Source: Candidatus Magasanikbacteria bacterium GW2011_GWC2_37_14 (GTDB lineage: Bacteria; Patescibacteriota; Patescibacteriia; Magasanikbacterales; UBA922). Taken from it: a stretch of 64,000 nt of DNA. The notes below the pieces were generated by a model. It worked only from the letters and a program-made list of their open reading frames with translations, was not told the origin of the DNA and searched no databases. A program made the translations under genes and the position numbers. The stretch lies in contig LBSX01000002.1 of the NCBI GenBank assembly GCA_000990355.1, forward strand, positions 6,000-69,999, read 5' to 3'. Positions 19,631 to 63,346 of the stretch are shown here, piece after piece (within the stretch, counting starts at the first letter, position 1; the number at the start of each line of letters is the position of its first letter).

Positions 19631-20927
19631 TTTACCTAAAAAACCAAAAACAAAAAAATTAGTATATTTGGATCATGCCGCTACTACATATGTAAGTCAA
19701 GAGGTAGAAAAAGCCACAAAGCCTTTTATAACCAAGATTTTTGGGAACCCCAGTAGTTTGTATGAACTAGGTAGAATTGCTAATGGTGAATTAAATGATT
19801 GCCGACGTAAAGTGGCGGAGATTTTACACGCCCTGCCTGACAATATTATTTTTACGGGTGGTGGTAGTGAATCAGATAACTTGGCTATTTTTGGTGTTTG
19901 TAGAAAAATTGGTAAAGGTCATATTATTGCTACCAGGATAGAACATCACGCAGTGCTTTATCCTTGCCAACAATTAGAAAAAGAAGGTTTTACTGTTACT
20001 TACCTAGAACCAGATTCACAAGGTTTTATTTCACCCAAAAAAGTTTTAGCGGCAATTAAACCAGACACAATTTTGATTTCTATAATGTATGCTAATAATG
20101 AAATTGGTACTGTAGAACCAATTGCTGATATTGGTCGCGAGATTTTAAAATATCGTAAAGCCAACAATCCTTCGGCAGGCTCAGGACAAGTTCAGTATCC
20201 TATTTTTCATACCGATGCTTGCCAAGCCGGTGGAGTGCTGGAATTAGATGTAGAAAAATTACATGTGGACCTAATGACACTTAATGGTAGTAAAATTTAT
20301 GGACCAAAAGGTGTGGGTTTGCTTTACAAACGTCGTGGAGTAAATATTCAACCACTTATTTTTGGTGGTGGTCAAGAAATGAATTTGCGTAGTGGTACTG
20401 AAAATTTAGCTGGCATTGTAGGTTTTACCAAAGCTTTGGAAATTGCTCAAGAAAATCGTCACGAAGAAAATATGCGTTTAGTAGATTTGCGCAATTATTT
20501 TTTTGATCAAATACAAAAGAATATTAAAAATATTAGACTCAATGGTCCCCAACTTCACTCTGATAAAAATCAGAGTTACACTGGGCAAGCTGGTTCTGAA
20601 GTTCTAAACAGATTACCTAACAATCTAAATATTACATTTATTGATGTAGAAGGTGAGGCAATGCTTCTTTATTTAGATGCTTACGGAATTTGTTGTTCTA
20701 CTGGTTCGGCTTGTACTTCAATGTCATTAGAACCTTCACATGTTCTTACCGCTTTAGGTTTGCCCTATGAATACGCTCATGGTAGTTTAAGATTTACTTT
20801 GGGTTATTGTAATACAAAACAAGATATTGATTATGTAATGAGATACTTACCAGCAATTGTAGAAAAATTACGGGAAATGAGTCCGGTGCAGATGGGGAAA
20901 GTTCAACATGCCAAATATAAAAAATGA
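19620..20927 (+). CDS. nifS: cysteine desulfurase (NifS/IscS type)
   Basis: PLP-lysine region GSKIYGPKG and active-site Cys loop CCSTGSAC. The ORF could start 9 nt earlier, at 19611. Confidence 0.9.
   Translation: MTNNLPKKPKTKKLVYLDHAATTYVSQEVEKATKPFITKIFGNPSSLYELGRIANGELNDCRRKVAEILHALPDNIIFTGGGSESDNLAIFGVCRKIGKGHIIATRIEHHAVLYPCQQLEKEGFTVTYLEPDSQGFISPKKVLAAIKPDTILISIMYANNEIGTVEPIADIGREILKYRKANNPSAGSGQVQYPIFHTDACQAGGVLELDVEKLHVDLMTLNGSKIYGPKGVGLLYKRRGVNIQPLIFGGGQEMNLRSGTENLAGIVGFTKALEIAQENRHEENMRLVDLRNYFFDQIQKNIKNIRLNGPQLHSDKNQSYTGQAGSEVLNRLPNNLNITFIDVEGEAMLLYLDAYGICCSTGSACTSMSLEPSHVLTALGLPYEYAHGSLRFTLGYCNTKQDIDYVMRYLPAIVEKLREMSPVQMGKVQHAKYKK
20168..20191 (+). repeat. 24-bp GC-rich in-frame repeat (family C), copy in nifS
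   Basis: tccttcggcaggctcaggacaagt, same reading frame as the typA copy. It encodes PSAGSGQV. Confidence 0.6.
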
Positions 20928-21024
20928 CAAATTACTAATATCTAATACCTAATGAAATGACAAATTTTAAAATTTAACATTAAGAATTTCATTAGAAATT
21001 AGTAATTAGACATTAGAAATTATT

Positions 21025-21929: not shown

Positions 21930-22649
21930 ATGGAAAATATTGGAAAACTTTATATTGTTGCCACCCCAATTGGCAATTTAGGCGACATTACTTTACGCGC
22001 TTTGGAAACATTAAAAAGTGTTGATTTTGTTTTGTGTGAAGATACCAGAGTTACCCAAAATTTACTAAATCATTTTGCTATTAAAACAAAAAGTATTTCC
22101 TACCACCAACATAGCGGTGTAGAAAAAATAAGTGAAATTATTAAATTATTAGAGACCGGTAAAAATTTAGCTCTTGTAACCGATGCTGGCACTCCCGGTA
22201 TCTCTGATCCTGGGAATTATTTGATAGCTGAAATTGTCAAAAAATGTCATGCTGAATTTATTTCAGCATCTCAGGGGATCCTGAAACCAGTTCAGGATGA
22301 CAGTATTGTACCAATCCCAGGTGCTTCGGCAGTCATTACTGCTTTATCAATTTCTGGTTTTTCAACAGATAAATTTTTATTTCTGGGTTTTCCGCCACAT
22401 AAAAAGGGTCGCAAGACGTTTTTTGAAGAATTAGCAAAAGTAGAACACACAGTTTGTTTTTATGAATCAAATCATCGAATTAAAAAATGTTTAGGAGAAT
22501 TAGCCGACGTTTTGGAAGAAGATAGACAAATGTGCGTGTGCCGTGAATTAACAAAAAAATTTGAAACTATTTATCGTGGAACAATAAAAGAAATATTAAC
22601 AAAAAATATTTCCGAAAAAGGCGAATTTGTAATAGTAATTAGTAATTAA
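21930..22649 (+). CDS. rsmI: 16S rRNA (cytidine1402-2'-O)-methyltransferase RsmI
   Basis: YIVATPIGNLGDIT...CEDTR tetrapyrrole-methylase-fold signature of RsmI. Carries an in-frame 19-aa insert; see the mobile element at 22245-22302. Confidence 0.9.
   Translation: MENIGKLYIVATPIGNLGDITLRALETLKSVDFVLCEDTRVTQNLLNHFAIKTKSISYHQHSGVEKISEIIKLLETGKNLALVTDAGTPGISDPGNYLIAEIVKKCHAEFISASQGILKPVQDDSIVPIPGASAVITALSISGFSTDKFLFLGFPPHKKGRKTFFEELAKVEHTVCFYESNHRIKKCLGELADVLEEDRQMCVCRELTKKFETIYRGTIKEILTKNISEKGEFVIVISN
22245..22302 (+). mobile_element. MITE-like palindromic element (family A, GTCAT...ATGAC termini), in-frame inside rsmI
   Basis: tGTCATgctgaa-tttat-ttcagcatc...gatcctgaa-accag-ttcaggATGACa: two 8-bp-stem hairpins with inverted termini. 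Same termini as the 34082 and 63252 copies. Confidence 0.6.
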
Positions 22650-22650
22650 T

Positions 22651-24135
22651 ATGAAAAATTTTTATTTAACAACTACACTTCCATATGTAAATGCCGAACC
22701 TCACATTGGTTTTGCTTTGGAAATTATTCAAGCTGATGTAATTGCTCGTTATCATAAGTTGCTAGGTGAAGAAGTAATTTTTAATACTGGTACTGATGAG
22801 CATGGTTTAAAAATATATCGTAAAGCAATAGAACTGGGTGTTGAACTACAAAAATATTGCGACGAATATGCTGCCAAGTTCGATGCTTTAAAGCAAGCCT
22901 TAAATTTAAGTTATACTCATTTTATTCGTACTACCGACCCACATCATCTCAAAGCTGCTCAGGAATTTTGGTTACGTTGTGAAAAAAATGGTGATATTTA
23001 TAAAAAGAATTATAAAGTAAAATATTGTGTAGGTTGTGAATTAGAAAAAACTGATTCCGAATTGGTAGACGATAAATGTCCAGTGCATCCAAATTTAAAT
23101 ATTGAATTAATTGAAGAAGAAAATTATTTTTTTAAATTTTCTAAATTTCAAAAGCCATTACTGGAACTTTATAAAAAGAATCCAAAATTTGTTATTCCAG
23201 CCAATCGTCAATTAGAAATAAAAAACTTTGTGGAAAAAGGTTTGGAAGATTTTAGTATTTCTAGATTAAAAGAAAAAATGCCTTGGGGTATTCCAGTGCC
23301 AAATGATGCTGATCATGTAATGTACGTTTGGTTTGATGCTCTTATAAACTATATATCTACATTAGGTTGGCCAGAAGATGAAAATAATTTTAATAATTTT
23401 TGGCCAGGAATTCAAGTAGCCGGAAAAGATAATTTACGCCAACAATCGGCAATGTGGCAAGCAATGCTGTTGTCTGCAGGGTTGCCAACGTCAAAACAGA
23501 TATTTATTCATGGTTTTATTACCTCCGAAGGACAAAAAATGAGTAAGAGTTTCGGTAATGTTGTTGAACCTTATAAAATTGTAGATAAATATGGCACTGA
23601 TGCCACGCGTTATTTCTTGCTTGGTGGTTTGCCTTCATATGAAGATGGTGATTTTTCTATTGAACGTTTTGAAGAATTTTATACTGCTCATCTTGTAAAT
23701 GGAGTAGGGAATTTATCAAGTCGAATTTTGACGATGATTGAAAAATATTCAGAATCAAAAATACCAGCTCAAATAGCAGATAACAAATATCAGTTAACAG
23801 AATTTTGGGCAAGTTATGATAAATTTATTAATGAATATAGATTTGAATCAATTGTTGAATTGGTGAATAGTCTTGTTGGCCAACTTGATGGAATGATTTC
23901 AACAGAAAAACCATGGGAAAAAGCGAAAAAAGGTGAAGATATTTCTGGTTTACTTTATCAACTAGCTGAAGGTTTGCGTCATATTGCTGTAGCACTTTTA
24001 CCAATTATTCCCGAAACTGCAGAAAAGATTTTAAAACAATTAGGCACAGAAGATACTTCGCGCGACTGGGGAAAATTAGAAGAAGGTGGTATAATAAAAA
24101 AAGGCGTGATACTTTTCCCAAGACTGGAAAAATAA
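22651..24135 (+). CDS. metG: methionyl-tRNA synthetase
   Basis: HIGH-like PHIGFA, KMSKS (KMSKSFGN) and CxxC zinc knuckles. Short form without the C-terminal dimerisation domain. Confidence 0.9.
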   Translation: MKNFYLTTTLPYVNAEPHIGFALEIIQADVIARYHKLLGEEVIFNTGTDEHGLKIYRKAIELGVELQKYCDEYAAKFDALKQALNLSYTHFIRTTDPHHLKAAQEFWLRCEKNGDIYKKNYKVKYCVGCELEKTDSELVDDKCPVHPNLNIELIEEENYFFKFSKFQKPLLELYKKNPKFVIPANRQLEIKNFVEKGLEDFSISRLKEKMPWGIPVPNDADHVMYVWFDALINYISTLGWPEDENNFNNFWPGIQVAGKDNLRQQSAMWQAMLLSAGLPTSKQIFIHGFITSEGQKMSKSFGNVVEPYKIVDKYGTDATRYFLLGGLPSYEDGDFSIERFEEFYTAHLVNGVGNLSSRILTMIEKYSESKIPAQIADNKYQLTEFWASYDKFINEYRFESIVELVNSLVGQLDGMISTEKPWEKAKKGEDISGLLYQLAEGLRHIAVALLPIIPETAEKILKQLGTEDTSRDWGKLEEGGIIKKGVILFPRLEK

Positions 24136-24265
24136 TTTTCATTTTACAATTTACAATTTTCAATAAATTATCAATTTTCAATTACCAATTTGGAAATTGT
24201 TTCATTGAAAATTTATTGTAAATTGATTATTGATAATTGTAAATTTTATTTTTTAATTTTTTATG
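24136..24265. repeat. AT-rich TTTNCAA heptamer array containing a 22-bp block identical to one upstream of atpF
   Basis: ttttacaa/tttacaa/ttttcaa... repeats. ttgaaaatttattgtaaattga at 24205-24226 is identical to 31141-31162. Confidence 0.45.
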
Positions 24266-28640: not shown

Positions 28641-29771
28641 ATGATGATTGACACTCACTGTCATATACAATTCAATTCATATAAAGACGATTATGAAGAA
28701 GTAATAAAAAGATGCACTGAAAAGGGTATGATTTTGAATTGTGTGGGTTCACAAATTGATACTAGTAGACGAGCAGTAGAGTATGCGGAAAAGTATGAAA
28801 ATATTTATGCCACCATTGGGCTTCACCCCGTGCATTTGTTTTCCAGTGAAGTAGATGAAGAAGAAACAAAATTTAAAACGCGTGAAGAAAAGTTTGATTA
28901 TGAAGAATATAAAAAATTAGCAGAACACCCCAAAGTGATTGGCATAGGGGAGTGTGGCTTAGAATTATTTCATCTTCCAAAAGATGCTAACAAAGATGAA
29001 ATTTTGGCAAAACAAAAAGAAGGATTTTTGTTACAATACAAATTGGCACAAGAATTAGCCTTGCCAATGGTAATTCATGTACGTGATGCTTATGATGAAA
29101 TGGTAGAGTTTCTAACTGTCATTGCGAGGAGGTCAACAGCCGACGAAGCAATCCCCAGTCAGAATGGGATTGCCACACCTCGTTCGGGCGAGGTTCGCAA
29201 TGACATTTGTGGAGTAGTGCATTGTTACTCTGGTAATTGGGCTCAGGCCTCTAAATTCATTGATTTAGGCCTGTACCTAGGCTTTACTGGGATTCTAACC
29301 TATCCAACAAGAAAAACCAACCCAAAGCCTACAGAAGACCTTGTAGAGGTAGTTAAAAATTGTCCTATAGAGCGAATTTTAATCGAAACAGACGCTCCTT
29401 ATCTAGCACCGCAGAAATATCGTGGACAGCGTTGCGAGCCATGGATGGTAGAAGAAGTTGCTGTAAAAATAGCAGAAATAAAGGGAATAAGTGTAGAAGA
29501 AGTTCGAGAACAAACAGTAAAAAATGCTTTGAAATTGTTTAAAAAATTAGATATTTGGCATTTTCATACTTGTCCCCAAGCAAATCTAAAAATCCCCTTG
29601 ACCAAAGAGGGGTTTTTTAGTAAAATATGTGCGTTCTTCAATAAACAATATTCAAGAAGTATATGGCTCTTTTACCTACTGATTCCAAGGATCGTCAATA
29701 TATGTTACTTGGTTTGCGCATTGCTGGTGATTTTGGTGCTACAATTGCTGTTCCAATTGTTCTTTTTGTAA
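28641..29771 (+). CDS. tatD: TatD-family metal-dependent hydrolase (with a MITE insertion and an unusual C-terminal read-through)
   Basis: HxH (DTHCH), GECGLE, HCYSG and ETDAPYL TatD motifs. There is no in-frame stop until 29771, so the ORF overlaps the atp promoter and atpZ. Confidence 0.8.
   Translation: MMIDTHCHIQFNSYKDDYEEVIKRCTEKGMILNCVGSQIDTSRRAVEYAEKYENIYATIGLHPVHLFSSEVDEEETKFKTREEKFDYEEYKKLAEHPKVIGIGECGLELFHLPKDANKDEILAKQKEGFLLQYKLAQELALPMVIHVRDAYDEMVEFLTVIARRSTADEAIPSQNGIATPRSGEVRNDICGVVHCYSGNWAQASKFIDLGLYLGFTGILTYPTRKTNPKPTEDLVEVVKNCPIERILIETDAPYLAPQKYRGQRCEPWMVEEVAVKIAEIKGISVEEVREQTVKNALKLFKKLDIWHFHTCPQANLKIPLTKEGFFSKICAFFNKQYSRSIWLFYLLIPRIVNICYLVCALLVILVLQLLFQLFFL
29117..29205 (+). 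mobile_element. MITE-like element (family A-related) with 11-bp perfect terminal inverted repeats, in-frame inside tatD
   Basis: tGTCATTGCGA...TCGCAATGACa plus an internal gcaatccc/gggattgc hairpin. Adds about 29 aa between the conserved TatD motifs. Confidence 0.55.
29598..29626 (+). promoter_or_regulatory. sigma70-like promoter for the atp operon (overlapping a hairpin)
   Basis: TTGACC (29598-29603), 17-nt spacer, TAAAAT (29621-29626). The spacer forms a cccct-tgaccaaag-agggg-T6 stem-loop. Confidence 0.5.
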
Positions 29772-31020: not shown

Positions 31021-31172
31021 TTTCGACCCAATGGACTGAATGGTCTGTTGGGATGGGAACGTTTTAAATTTACAATTACTCAATTTACAGTTTTCAATAA
31101 ATTTACAATTACTCAATTTTCAAATTGATAAATTGTAGGATTGAAAATTTATTGTAAATTGAAAATTAAAAA
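31021..31172. repeat. AT-rich TTNCAA heptamer array and roughly 35-bp tandem duplication upstream of atpF
   Basis: aaatttacaattactcaattt occurs twice (31066-31086 and 31103-31123), and the 22-mer at 31141-31162 is identical to 24205-24226. Confidence 0.45.
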
Positions 31173-31751
31173 TTGAAAATTATGAATATCATTGAAATAG
31201 CTAACGCCTCTACTGAAGAAACTGTAGTAGAGCATACAACAACACCAAATAACGAGAGTGTCGCTGCATCTCTAGGCTTAAATGGCCAGTTATTTGTTTT
31301 CCAATTAATTAATTTTGCGATAGTCGCAGGAATTGTTTGGTTTTTAATTTTAAAGCCTTTAACTTCAAAATTAGAGGAACGAAAAAATATTATTGATGAA
31401 AGTCTTGAGAAAGCAAAAGAAGTAGAAGCTAATTTAATAATGAGTAATGAAAAATTTACTGAAAAAATTAGCGAAGCCAAAGCTGAAGGTAATAAAATTA
31501 TTACCAAAGCAACTACCGATGCTGAAGAATTGGCAGTTTCTATGAAAGCCAAAGCCAAGGTTGAAATTGAAAATTTAGTAGAACAAGCAAGAGGAAAAAT
31601 TAAGGATGAAAAAGAAGAAGTAATGCAGGGTATTAAAAAAGAAACTGCTAGTTTAATTATGGCTGTGGTAGAGAAAGTTTTAAATGAAAAATTAACCGAT
31701 AAAAAAGATCAGCAATTGATTGAAGAATCATTAAAAAATTTGCATAAATAA
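31173..31751 (+). CDS. atpF: F0F1 ATP synthase subunit b
   Basis: N-terminal TM helix followed by a long charged coiled-coil, in operon context. Confidence 0.8.
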   Translation: MKIMNIIEIANASTEETVVEHTTTPNNESVAASLGLNGQLFVFQLINFAIVAGIVWFLILKPLTSKLEERKNIIDESLEKAKEVEANLIMSNEKFTEKISEAKAEGNKIITKATTDAEELAVSMKAKAKVEIENLVEQARGKIKDEKEEVMQGIKKETASLIMAVVEKVLNEKLTDKKDQQLIEESLKNLHK

Positions 31752-34081: not shown

Positions 34082-34176
34082 TGTCATGCTGAATTTATTT
34101 CAGCATCTCTTCGATAGATTACTTTTTGCTAAAATAATTAAATTAAGAAAGATCCTGAAACGAGTTCAGGATGACA
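34082..34176 (+). mobile_element. MITE-like element (family A), intergenic atpA-atpG
   Basis: 95 bp: tGTCATgctgaa-tttat-ttcagcatc, a variable core, then gatcctgaa-acgag-ttcaggATGACa. Its right end AGGATGA lies 6 nt before the atpG ATG. Confidence 0.6.
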
Positions 34177-52184: not shown

Positions 52185-52955
52185 ATGACTAAAAAAACTT
52201 TGATAATTCTACCTGGATGGGGTGGAAACAAAGAAACGTGGAAAAATTTTGCAGAACTTGCGAGCAAAGATTTTGACGTACATATTATTGAATTGCCGTG
52301 TTTTGGCGATGAACCCTGCCCAAAAACAGTTTGGGATATTGAAGATTATGTTGAGTTTGTTAAAAATAAACTTCTTGAGCGTCATTCCCGCGAAGGCGGG
52401 AATCTTAAATTGGTGAAAGATCCCCGTTTTCACGGGGATGACGCAGTGCTATTAGGTCACTCATTTGGTGGACAAGTAGCCACGGTCTTTGCTTCCAAAT
52501 ACCCAGAGATGATTGAAAAACTTATTTTAACAGCACCGGCTGTTTTCCGCCCTAAAAAAACTTTTCGACGAGTAGTTTTCAATATTGGAGCAAAATTTGG
52601 TAAATTAATTTTTAAAATTCCTTGGATAGAAAATGGTTCCCTCTGGGCCGAAAAAATTTATCACCAAGCAATTGGTGCCAAAGATTATCATGATAGTTCG
52701 GGCATTAAACGAGAAATTTTTAAAAATATTATTCGTCAAGACAGGGGAGTGGAAGCTAGTAAAATTACTATACCAACTCTAATTGTTTGGGGTACAATGG
52801 ATGGTTATCTACCAGTTGCTGATGCTAATCAATTGAATAAATTAATAAAAAACTCTAAACTTGAAATAGTTAATGGTGGAAGACATGGATTACACCTACA
52901 AATACCAGAAAAACTTTTATATTTAATAAAATCTTTTCTTGAAAAAAATATATGA
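52185..52955 (+). CDS. alpha/beta hydrolase
   Basis: GHSFGG nucleophile elbow. Contains an in-frame palindromic insert just upstream of it. Confidence 0.7.
   Translation: MTKKTLIILPGWGGNKETWKNFAELASKDFDVHIIELPCFGDEPCPKTVWDIEDYVEFVKNKLLERHSREGGNLKLVKDPRFHGDDAVLLGHSFGGQVATVFASKYPEMIEKLILTAPAVFRPKKTFRRVVFNIGAKFGKLIFKIPWIENGSLWAEKIYHQAIGAKDYHDSSGIKREIFKNIIRQDRGVEASKITIPTLIVWGTMDGYLPVADANQLNKLIKNSKLEIVNGGRHGLHLQIPEKLLYLIKSFLEKNI
52380..52443 (+). mobile_element. MITE-like element (family A-like, GTCAT...ATGAC termini), in-frame in the hydrolase gene
   Basis: cGTCATtcccgc-gaag-gcgggaatc...gatccccg-ttttca-cggggATGACg: two subterminal hairpins. Encodes RHSREGGNLKLVKDPRFHGDD. Confidence 0.55.
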
Positions 52956-62898: not shown

Positions 62899-63207
62899 TT
62901 ATTTATTACTTTTTTCTGATTTCAAAATATAAATAGACACAACCACAATCACAATCGTAATAATCACCGCATAAATAAATTTGGCCAAAAGTCCCCCACC
63001 AGAAGCAAGGGGAAAATATCTTTCAATTAATCCTTTTATAGCTTCATTCCAGGCCAAACCAGCCACTAACCCAAATCCAGCCAAAACATAAGTACCAATT
63101 TTTTGTTTAACTTCTGTCCCAACTTTTTTTGTTTCTTTTTTGAAATTGTCTAGCATACGTTCAATGATTAATATATTAATATTAGCAAATTTGACAAAAA
63201 AAATCAA
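62899..63207 (-). CDS. small hypothetical membrane protein
   Basis: Two TM helices. The real start is probably internal (MLDNFKK). Confidence 0.4.
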   Translation of the reverse strand: MIFFVKFANINILIIERMLDNFKKETKKVGTEVKQKIGTYVLAGFGLVAGLAWNEAIKGLIERYFPLASGGGLLAKFIYAVIITIVIVVVSIYILKSEKSNK

Positions 63208-63251
63208 GCTGGTATAATATTAGCACTCAAAGGTAGTGAGTGATAACTCAC

Positions 63252-63346
63252 TGTCATGCTGAACTTGTTTCAGCATCTATCCTTGTAAACACATTTCTAA
63301 AAAATTATAACTTTATGAAAGATCCTGAAATAAATTCAGGATGACA
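63252..63346 (+). mobile_element. MITE-like element (family A), immediately upstream of clpB
   Basis: 95 bp, with the same termini and hairpin modules as 34082-34176. Its right end AGGATGACA lies 6 nt before the clpB ATG. Confidence 0.6.

Follow-up and report, generated by a model that had tools for sequence, protein, structure and literature searches.

The DNA analysed here (the window) is a 64-kb stretch of the groundwater genome of Candidatus Magasanikbacteria GW2011_GWC2_37_14, a member of the Patescibacteria (CPR). Its genes include those for an RsmI-like 16S rRNA methyltransferase, a TatD-family hydrolase and an alpha/beta-hydrolase, the pair atpA-atpG and, running off the end of the window, a gene that is probably clpB. 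Five short palindromic repeats that begin with GTCAT and end with ATGAC are found within or between these genes (Table 1); they measure 58–95 nt and have the consensus ends YGTCAT…ATGACR. All five loci had been listed in a preliminary description of this sequence, and all proved to be present. As that description claimed, three copies lie in-frame inside the rsmI, tatD and alpha/beta-hydrolase open reading frames, adding the codons indicated in Table 1, and the identity of the three host genes was confirmed with Pfam. None of the lengths 58, 64 and 89 nt is a multiple of three; the net insert therefore differs by 1–2 nt from the element as delimited. The two remaining copies are intergenic. 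The one at 34082 starts 1 nt past the atpA stop codon, and both end 6 nt before a start codon (for the former, the likely start of atpG, ATG 34183). A role as a ribosome-binding site was considered for them and rejected: the family as a whole shows just a loose excess at 1–14 nt from the start codon, as expected for short spacers.

Table 1. Coordinates in the window of the repeat elements, their host genes and neighbouring features.
Feature	Position	Strand	Description
RsmI-like 16S rRNA methyltransferase gene	21930..22649	+	Host gene; Pfam TP_methylase
Element, 58 nt	22245..22302	+	In-frame in the rsmI-like gene; adds CHAEFISASQGILKPVQDD, 19 codons
Left arm of the 22245 element	22246-22269	+	GTC ATGCTGAA tttat TTCAGCAT C
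Right arm of the 22245 element	22278-22301	-	GTC ATCCTGAA ctggt TTCAGGAT C
TatD-family hydrolase gene	28641..29771	+	Host gene; Pfam TatD_DNase
Element, 89 nt	29117..29205	+	In-frame in tatD; adds VIARRSTADEAIPSQNGIATPRSGEVRND, 29 codons
Element, 95 nt	34082..34176	+	atpA-atpG spacer
Alpha/beta-hydrolase gene (annotated as BioH-like)	52185..52955	+	Host gene; Pfam Abhydrolase
Element, 64 nt	52380..52443	+	In-frame in the alpha/beta-hydrolase gene; adds RHSREGGNLKLVKDPRFHGDD, 21 codons
Promoter TTGACA-16-TATAAT	63191-63218	+	Upstream of the 63252 element; sequence reading
CIRCE-like repeat TTAGCACTC-N9-GAGTGATAA	63220-63246	+	Context of the 63252 element; sequence reading
Element, 95 nt	63252..63346	+	clpB 5'-UTR, between the CIRCE-like operator and the start codon (ATG 63353)
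Predicted insert-junction peptide (example)			...IVKKCHAEFISASQGILKPVQDDSIVPIPG...

The surroundings of these loci have some further features. The promoter upstream of the 63252 element is of a perfect sigma-70 type, with a TG, and is followed by the CIRCE-like repeat, an indication that heat-shock control in this CPR genome is of the HrcA type. The tatD open reading frame specifies 375–376 amino acids, compared with 315 in a relative whose protein is 92% identical and with about 280 in a typical TatD; the extra C-terminal 60–75 residues or so (window 29540-29771) are hydrophobic and unrelated to TatD, and could result from the loss of a stop codon or from fusion with a small membrane ORF. Clusters of AT-rich inverted repeats occupy intergenic positions 20920-21024, 24128-24251 and 31080-31176, share motifs such as TTTACAATTT and ATTTTCAAT, and look like a second, unrelated repeat family.

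To delimit the GTCAT repeats, all GTCAT...ATGAC pairs no more than 200 nt apart were collected from the 64 kb. Seven were found, exactly five of which had a terminal inverted repeat of at least 9 nt, while 200 dinucleotide-preserving shuffles of the window gave a mean of 0.46 such pairs (maximum, 3). The list of the preliminary description is therefore complete for the window. All five elements fold more stably than their shuffled versions (z = -3.6 to -5.0). A detector of GTC followed by a perfect hairpin returned eight modules, corresponding to four of the elements, together with a few AT-only chance matches. The hairpin of 8–9 bp previously assigned to every arm thus describes four elements, where a perfect 8-bp AT...AT stem directly follows GTC, and does not describe the 29117 copy. 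The weak hairpins of the latter (TTGCGAG-type arms) have 5-bp outer stems only (ATTGC/GCAAT) and imperfect interiors, and this copy was detected through its 11-nt terminal inverted repeat. Two other points of the earlier reading were upheld: the stems of the arms differ by a single base (GCTGAA versus CCTGAA), the termini being able to pair with each other, and the two 95-nt copies have near-identical ends (arms nearly identical, overall identity 75%). Four of the five loci, with their 20-nt flanks, were reproduced exactly in independent assemblies, which gave no coverage of the fifth; the 22245 element is present in L001–L003. At gathering thresholds, Rfam recognised one tRNA in the window and nothing else. 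It is thus confirmed that the five repeats are real, small inserted DNA elements, each made of two copies of a hairpin motif.

A full-text literature search with the DNA sequences of the arms led to a study of Ssn proteins, small single-domain GIY-YIG nucleases (CDD cd10448) that act on single-stranded DNA (Chenal et al., Nat Commun 2025; PMC11893778). The motif they recognise in Neisseria, NTS (CGTCATTCCCGCGMAVGCGGGAATCYRG), contains the dRS3 repeat and follows the grammar CGTCAT-palindrome-ATC; the same study defined a wider class of Ssn-related motifs (SRM). According to that work, Ssn binds the hairpin as single-stranded DNA only and cuts a few nucleotides 5' of it, on the same strand only; in N. 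meningitidis the GTC preceding the palindrome is the most important element for cutting, and the C right after the palindrome matters most for binding. An ssn gene typically has an SRM on either side, an arrangement termed IS-like, an IS-like origin being put forward there as a hypothesis only. Just 2% of the NTS copies of N. meningitidis are intragenic, and Rickettsia is among the genomes with more than 300 SRMs (PMC11893778).

All ten arms of the window (10/10) consist of GTC, an AT...AT palindrome and C. Agreement with the Neisseria NTS reaches 26 of 28 positions in the left arm of the 52380 element (CGTCATTCCCGCGAAGGCGGGAATC), which also contains a perfect dRS3, ATTCCC-N8-GGGAAT (52385-52404, ATTCCCGCGAAGGCGGGAAT); no other arm of the window agrees with the dRS3 definition. 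When the published SRM search pattern, HGTCWYN(0-2)YYVSBRHN(0-5)WNVSBRGN(0-2)RNCYNB, was applied, the right arm of this element matched in full and the left arm in all but the last base. Under strict and relaxed matching, the shuffled sequences gave 0.03 and 0.08 matches, respectively. The other eight arms (stems ATGCTGAA, ATCCTGAA and ATTGC..., that is, the GCTGAA/CCTGAA and TTGCGAG types) fail the pattern because their stems are AT-richer or weaker, a difference in stem composition only. The statement that no named repeat family has these termini has to be abandoned, since the arms are the NTS/SRM hairpin and one of them is a perfect Neisseria dRS3. Sequence comparison therefore gives good support to the view that the window elements are new members of the Ssn/SRM class, namely pairs of hairpins that enclose no gene, have new stem types and reside in a phylum that is new as a host.

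The likeness includes the (C/T)GTCAT-palindrome-ATC layout, the presence of arms with the same stems at the flanks of small GIY-YIG genes, and a distribution over many phyla. The window elements differ in that most of their arms fall outside the published pattern and are arranged as tight inverted pairs of 58–95 nt, in that three of the five are intragenic and lie in translated reading frames (against the 2% of Neisseria), and in that the host belongs to the Patescibacteria, with no ssn gene seen locally. Neisseria also harbours the intergenic mosaic elements (NIME), short cores bounded by inverted dRS3 repeats. These resemble the window elements in having a short variable core inside inverted ATTCCC-N8-GGGAAT-type hairpins; however, NIMEs form intergenic arrays, whereas the window elements occur singly and in part inside genes, and several of their stem types are found in the same genome.

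Family-wide features were derived from 114 independent mini-elements. In 95% of them a T or a C precedes GTCAT, and in 94% an A or a G follows ATGAC. These outermost bases co-vary (T..A, 67; C..G, 26; T..G, 10; C..A, 4), which makes YGTCAT...ATGACR the inverted repeat, in agreement with the limits given in the preliminary description. Target-site duplications, which that description had proposed to look for, were absent at the five window copies; in the 114-copy set, duplications of at least 2 nt occurred in 8%, compared with 7% for shuffled pairings of flanks, and no target consensus emerged. The absence of duplications argues against a MITE of the DDE type and fits a single-strand or recombinational route. 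Among intragenic copies, the inner length leaves a remainder of 2 or 0 on division by three, never 1 (8:3:0). This is because the arms contain stop codons: the left arm can be read TCA TGC TGA, and the right arm is open only in the frame ATC CTG...GAT GAC. Length modulo three was for this reason discarded as a guide to the insertion boundaries, the distribution being explained by the stop codons in the arms and not by a fixed insert length. Since the intragenic copies fall into two length classes, no single fixed boundary suits a clean cut-and-paste event.

Neither the window nor the adjoining 7.8 kb of the contig was found to contain a GIY-YIG/Ssn gene; the ∼72 kb seen represent ∼7% of a ∼1-Mb genome. 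The arms were followed in other genomes. A scan of one genome per species for GTCATSCTGAA-N5-TTCAGSATC gave at least 120 loci; the matches listed include Patescibacteria, Sphingomonadaceae, Bacteroidota, Treponema, Nitrospirota, Melainabacteria, Rickettsia and a Nanoarchaeota bin, and many of the listed loci are convergent arm pairs of 76–138 nt. A metagenome scan yielded at least 120 complete mini-elements of the window type. In a Pedobacter locus (L097), a gene for a 96-residue GIY-YIG protein lies between convergent arms, the right one being base-identical to the window arm at 22246. Units in which arms enclose an ssn-like gene, of about 350–440 bp, occur in L182 and L245, and in L184, L210, L099 and L016 an ssn-like gene is located 15–40 nt from mini-elements or is flanked by them. 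The proteins encoded by these arm-linked genes are all single-domain PF01541 polypeptides of 94–114 residues, an assignment based on Pfam and size class only; sequence searches yielded no solved homologue for them.

Closer to the window, a Magasanikbacteria relative (L005) carries two GIY-YIG genes within 20 kb, one of which lies between inverted hairpins with a variant head; the arms flanking its ssn-like gene are headed TTAAT. In a further relative (L004, 18355-18495), the atpA-atpG spacer, which in the window contains the 34082 element, holds an element of similar architecture with TTCAT...ATGAA termini (TTCATTCCGA...TCGGAATGAA). The head of the motif thus varies between lineages. Just upstream of tatD in L005 (13081-13248) there is a fragment of an ssn-like gene encoding 56 residues of a GIY-YIG protein, at a place where the window has an ordinary spacer. 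The GTCAT hairpin arm was also detected in 117 IMG/VR stretches. Six of these viral sequences (L284, L287, L291, L324, L329 and L333) have at least three arms each, and all of these arms (25 in total) are on one strand. A single ssn-like gene (L368, 541-840) was present in ∼1 Mb of IMG/VR sequence. Solo arms are thus strongly strand-biased in putative phage DNA.

To trace the history of the intragenic copies, 120 homologues were collected for each of the three host proteins. Of the 113 RsmI homologues that could be parsed, ∼70 have a loop of 9–16 residues at the site and ∼40 carry inserts of at least five mutually non-alignable types, most of which begin with V-I or C-H (GTCAT) and finish with -ND or -DD (ATGAC). 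The same pattern of empty sites and differing inserts was seen among the TatD and hydrolase homologues. The claim that the inserts are lineage-specific is borne out by empty sites in relatives for all three genes, none of these relatives being a near-identical strain. The orthologues do not bear out a conserved protein feature, which shared extra residues would have indicated: they carry different inserts at these positions or none. In the rsmI site of L005 the insert is GTCATATTGAGCG...CTCAGGATGAC; in L251 it has collapsed into a single hairpin of 38 nt that keeps both termini, and in L004 and L252 the site is empty. Neither of the two empty alleles has GTCAT at the site, and they thus give no support to a pre-existing GTCAT as landing pad.

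The insertions are concentrated in a narrow region of the protein. When the alignments were divided into inter-motif segments, 41 of the 43 RsmI insertions longer than five residues were located in one of nine segments, and all 29 TatD insertions in one of seven. On either side of each hot-spot lie the motifs that are best conserved in the host protein. Judged from the alignments, the three gene sites are recurrent insertion hot-spots, which the preliminary description had not anticipated. The insert types are scattered over a neighbour-joining tree of RsmI, a tree too poorly resolved to count independent insertions. A comparison with the relative whose TatD is 92% identical showed the arms to be identical at 71 of 73 positions, while the identity of the flanking coding sequence was 85.7% (P∼0.001) and the core had diverged. 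At the DNA level, then, constraint or homogenisation acts on the arms. In the AlphaFold model of RsmI (mean pLDDT 83), the insert is placed between a helix (residues 96–105) and a strand (126–129), with pLDDT below 50 for residues 114–120, which fits a surface linker. The same hot-spot loops of other RsmI, TatD and hydrolase homologues (for instance P0110, P0086, P0136, P0173 and P0214) contain inserts without the GTCAT/ATGAC signature, encoding motifs such as SPLFKEGIEGRS...PLKREG, PPYEGG, LGKGG and PPFQGG; these may represent a second class, a GC-rich hairpin repeat occupying the same sites.

The behaviour of the elements had been likened to that of the Rickettsia palindromic elements (RPE), and the likeness was reinforced. 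RPEs are the paradigm of palindromic repeats inserted in-frame in housekeeping genes and translated, and a 2024 review of MITEs (PMC10969869) names no enzyme for them. Both groups are small palindromic repeats found in-frame in unrelated housekeeping genes at sites compatible with protein structure. They differ in that RPEs form their own consensus families in Rickettsia, of ∼100–150 bp, whereas the window elements measure 58–95 nt and belong to an unrelated phylum. An 8-kb locus of a Rickettsia endosymbiont (L083) contains both arm types of the window, ATTCCCGC-gaag-GCGGGAAT and ATGCTGAA-N5-TTCAGCAT, in convergent pairs of RPE-like size (∼100–130 nt) that are partly nested; one of the arms lies inside a 3.4-kb open reading frame. 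At positions 592-723 of this locus, a GCTGAA-type arm (664-687) is nested between two NTS-like arms that form a 132-nt pair, an arrangement suggestive of the insertion of one element type into another. That RPEs may be SRM pairs is a lead, suggested indirectly by the L083 locus. Literature searches found no paper tying GIY-YIG proteins to the palindromic elements of Rickettsia, nothing relevant on in-frame palindromic elements or MITEs in CPR/Patescibacteria or on the insert peptides, and no follow-up paper on Ssn GIY-YIG nucleases and hairpin repeats.

The explanation that we consider probable is that the elements are non-autonomous, miniature Ssn-associated hairpin repeats of the SRM/NTS type, equivalent to SRM–ssn–SRM units that lack the gene, and nicked by Ssn. 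Each element comprises two inverted copies of Y-GTC-[AT-stem-loop-stem-AT]-C, separated by a variable core of short length. Because Ssn cuts 5' of the single-stranded hairpin and on that strand only, each strand would have one cleavable arm, located at the 5' boundary of the inverted pair. An Ssn protein encoded in another part of the genome, or one that the genome used to have, would nick the borders of the element when the DNA is single-stranded, as in replication or transformation, and the nicks would promote the copying or recombinational transfer of the unit. In genes, the survivors would be those copies that avoid the stop-containing frames of the arms and keep the frame of the host gene, to be translated as surface linkers of 19–29 residues; intergenic copies would be co-transcribed and form hairpins in the mRNA. 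What supports this explanation is the identity of the motif, the fact that orthologous sites differ in whether they are occupied and show turnover, the absence of target-site duplications, the conservation of the arms and the linkage to GIY-YIG genes elsewhere. The mobilisation itself is a step that we infer, Ssn being known to cleave DNA, not to transpose it.

An alternative to which we assign a low, though appreciable, probability is that the elements are relics or passengers: they would be of the SRM type by descent, with no Ssn acting in this genome now and a structural role only, as protein linker or mRNA hairpin, and would persist, and pass from one lineage to another, as whole alleles exchanged by homologous recombination in the highly conserved codons on both sides. 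The lack of an ssn gene in the ∼72 kb, the position of every hot-spot between the most conserved motifs, the scatter of insert types across the RsmI tree and the existence of decay products would all suit such a history. However, the portion of the genome seen is too small to establish that ssn is absent, and, even as the core drifts, the arms stay much better conserved than the coding background, which points to an ongoing constraint or homogenisation of the DNA that would not be expected of inert relics. A further proposal, in which no repeat was inserted and the additional residues represent either a conserved feature of the protein or an ordinary expansion of a loop, draws on the fact that the inserts occupy naturally variable loops. 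It is refuted by the presence of the same DNA arms in intergenic copies of the same window and by the homologues, most of which lack the insert while others have non-alignable ones that nevertheless start with GTCAT and end with ATGAC; we give it practically no credit.

Other known mobile systems account for part of the observations. REPINs (or REP-BIMEs) with their RAYT transposase share with the window family the inverted hairpin doublets, which can form one long hairpin, the lack of target-site duplications, a motif-flanked single-copy enzyme gene and a long residence in the genome. The head of a REP is nevertheless GTAG, not GTCAT, its enzyme is a Y1 transposase of the HUH class, and REPs are extragenic by definition, whereas the genes found between or beside the arms of the present family encode GIY-YIG proteins and no transposase-type domain was called in the annotated ORFs of the window. 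Elements derived from IS200/IS605 and associated with palindromes would belong to the same group of explanations, but the ends of IS200/IS605 are asymmetric on one strand and the arms of the window are symmetric; an origin of either kind seems very improbable. Classical MITEs, derived from an IS with a DDE transposase and mobilised in trans, would have terminal inverted repeats (7–11 nt here), a small size and many copies, all of which is observed. Against them stand the 114 independent copies, with neither target-site duplications nor a target consensus, and the full-length relatives, which carry a GIY-YIG gene and not a DDE gene, no IS with these ends having been seen; this origin is, if anything, even less credible than the previous one.

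Within the proposed Ssn-associated origin, a broader and clearly more speculative idea, to which we lend limited credence, is that Ssn GIY-YIG nucleases and GTCAT hairpins are the missing machinery of protein-coding palindromic repeats, RPEs included, and that insertion is targeted and not random. A resident element, or the structure adopted by the site as single-stranded DNA, might then serve as landing pad. Alternatively, element-bearing alleles might spread horizontally by transformation, recombination being biased by the nicks that Ssn makes at the arms. The idea draws on the insertions landing, almost without exception, beside the most conserved motifs, on the mutual replacement there of five or more arm types that do not align, and on the DNA-level constraint on the arms.

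These results give a name and a candidate enzyme to a repeat that had been described as unnamed. The Ssn/SRM system, which the 2025 study described chiefly in Proteobacteria and, for Neisseria, as lying almost never inside genes, is extended to a CPR genome in which most of the local copies are read as parts of enzymes. The hot-spots in genes and a possible link between Ssn and RPEs are the new points. In the light of the Rickettsia locus, RPEs and the Ssn system may be a single phenomenon, and the single-site hot-spots of RsmI, TatD and the hydrolase offer a comparative system in which random insertion followed by selection can be set against targeting. For those who annotate CPR genomes or predict protein structures, it is relevant that such repeats give rise to spurious peptide motifs and to length variation in CPR protein families.
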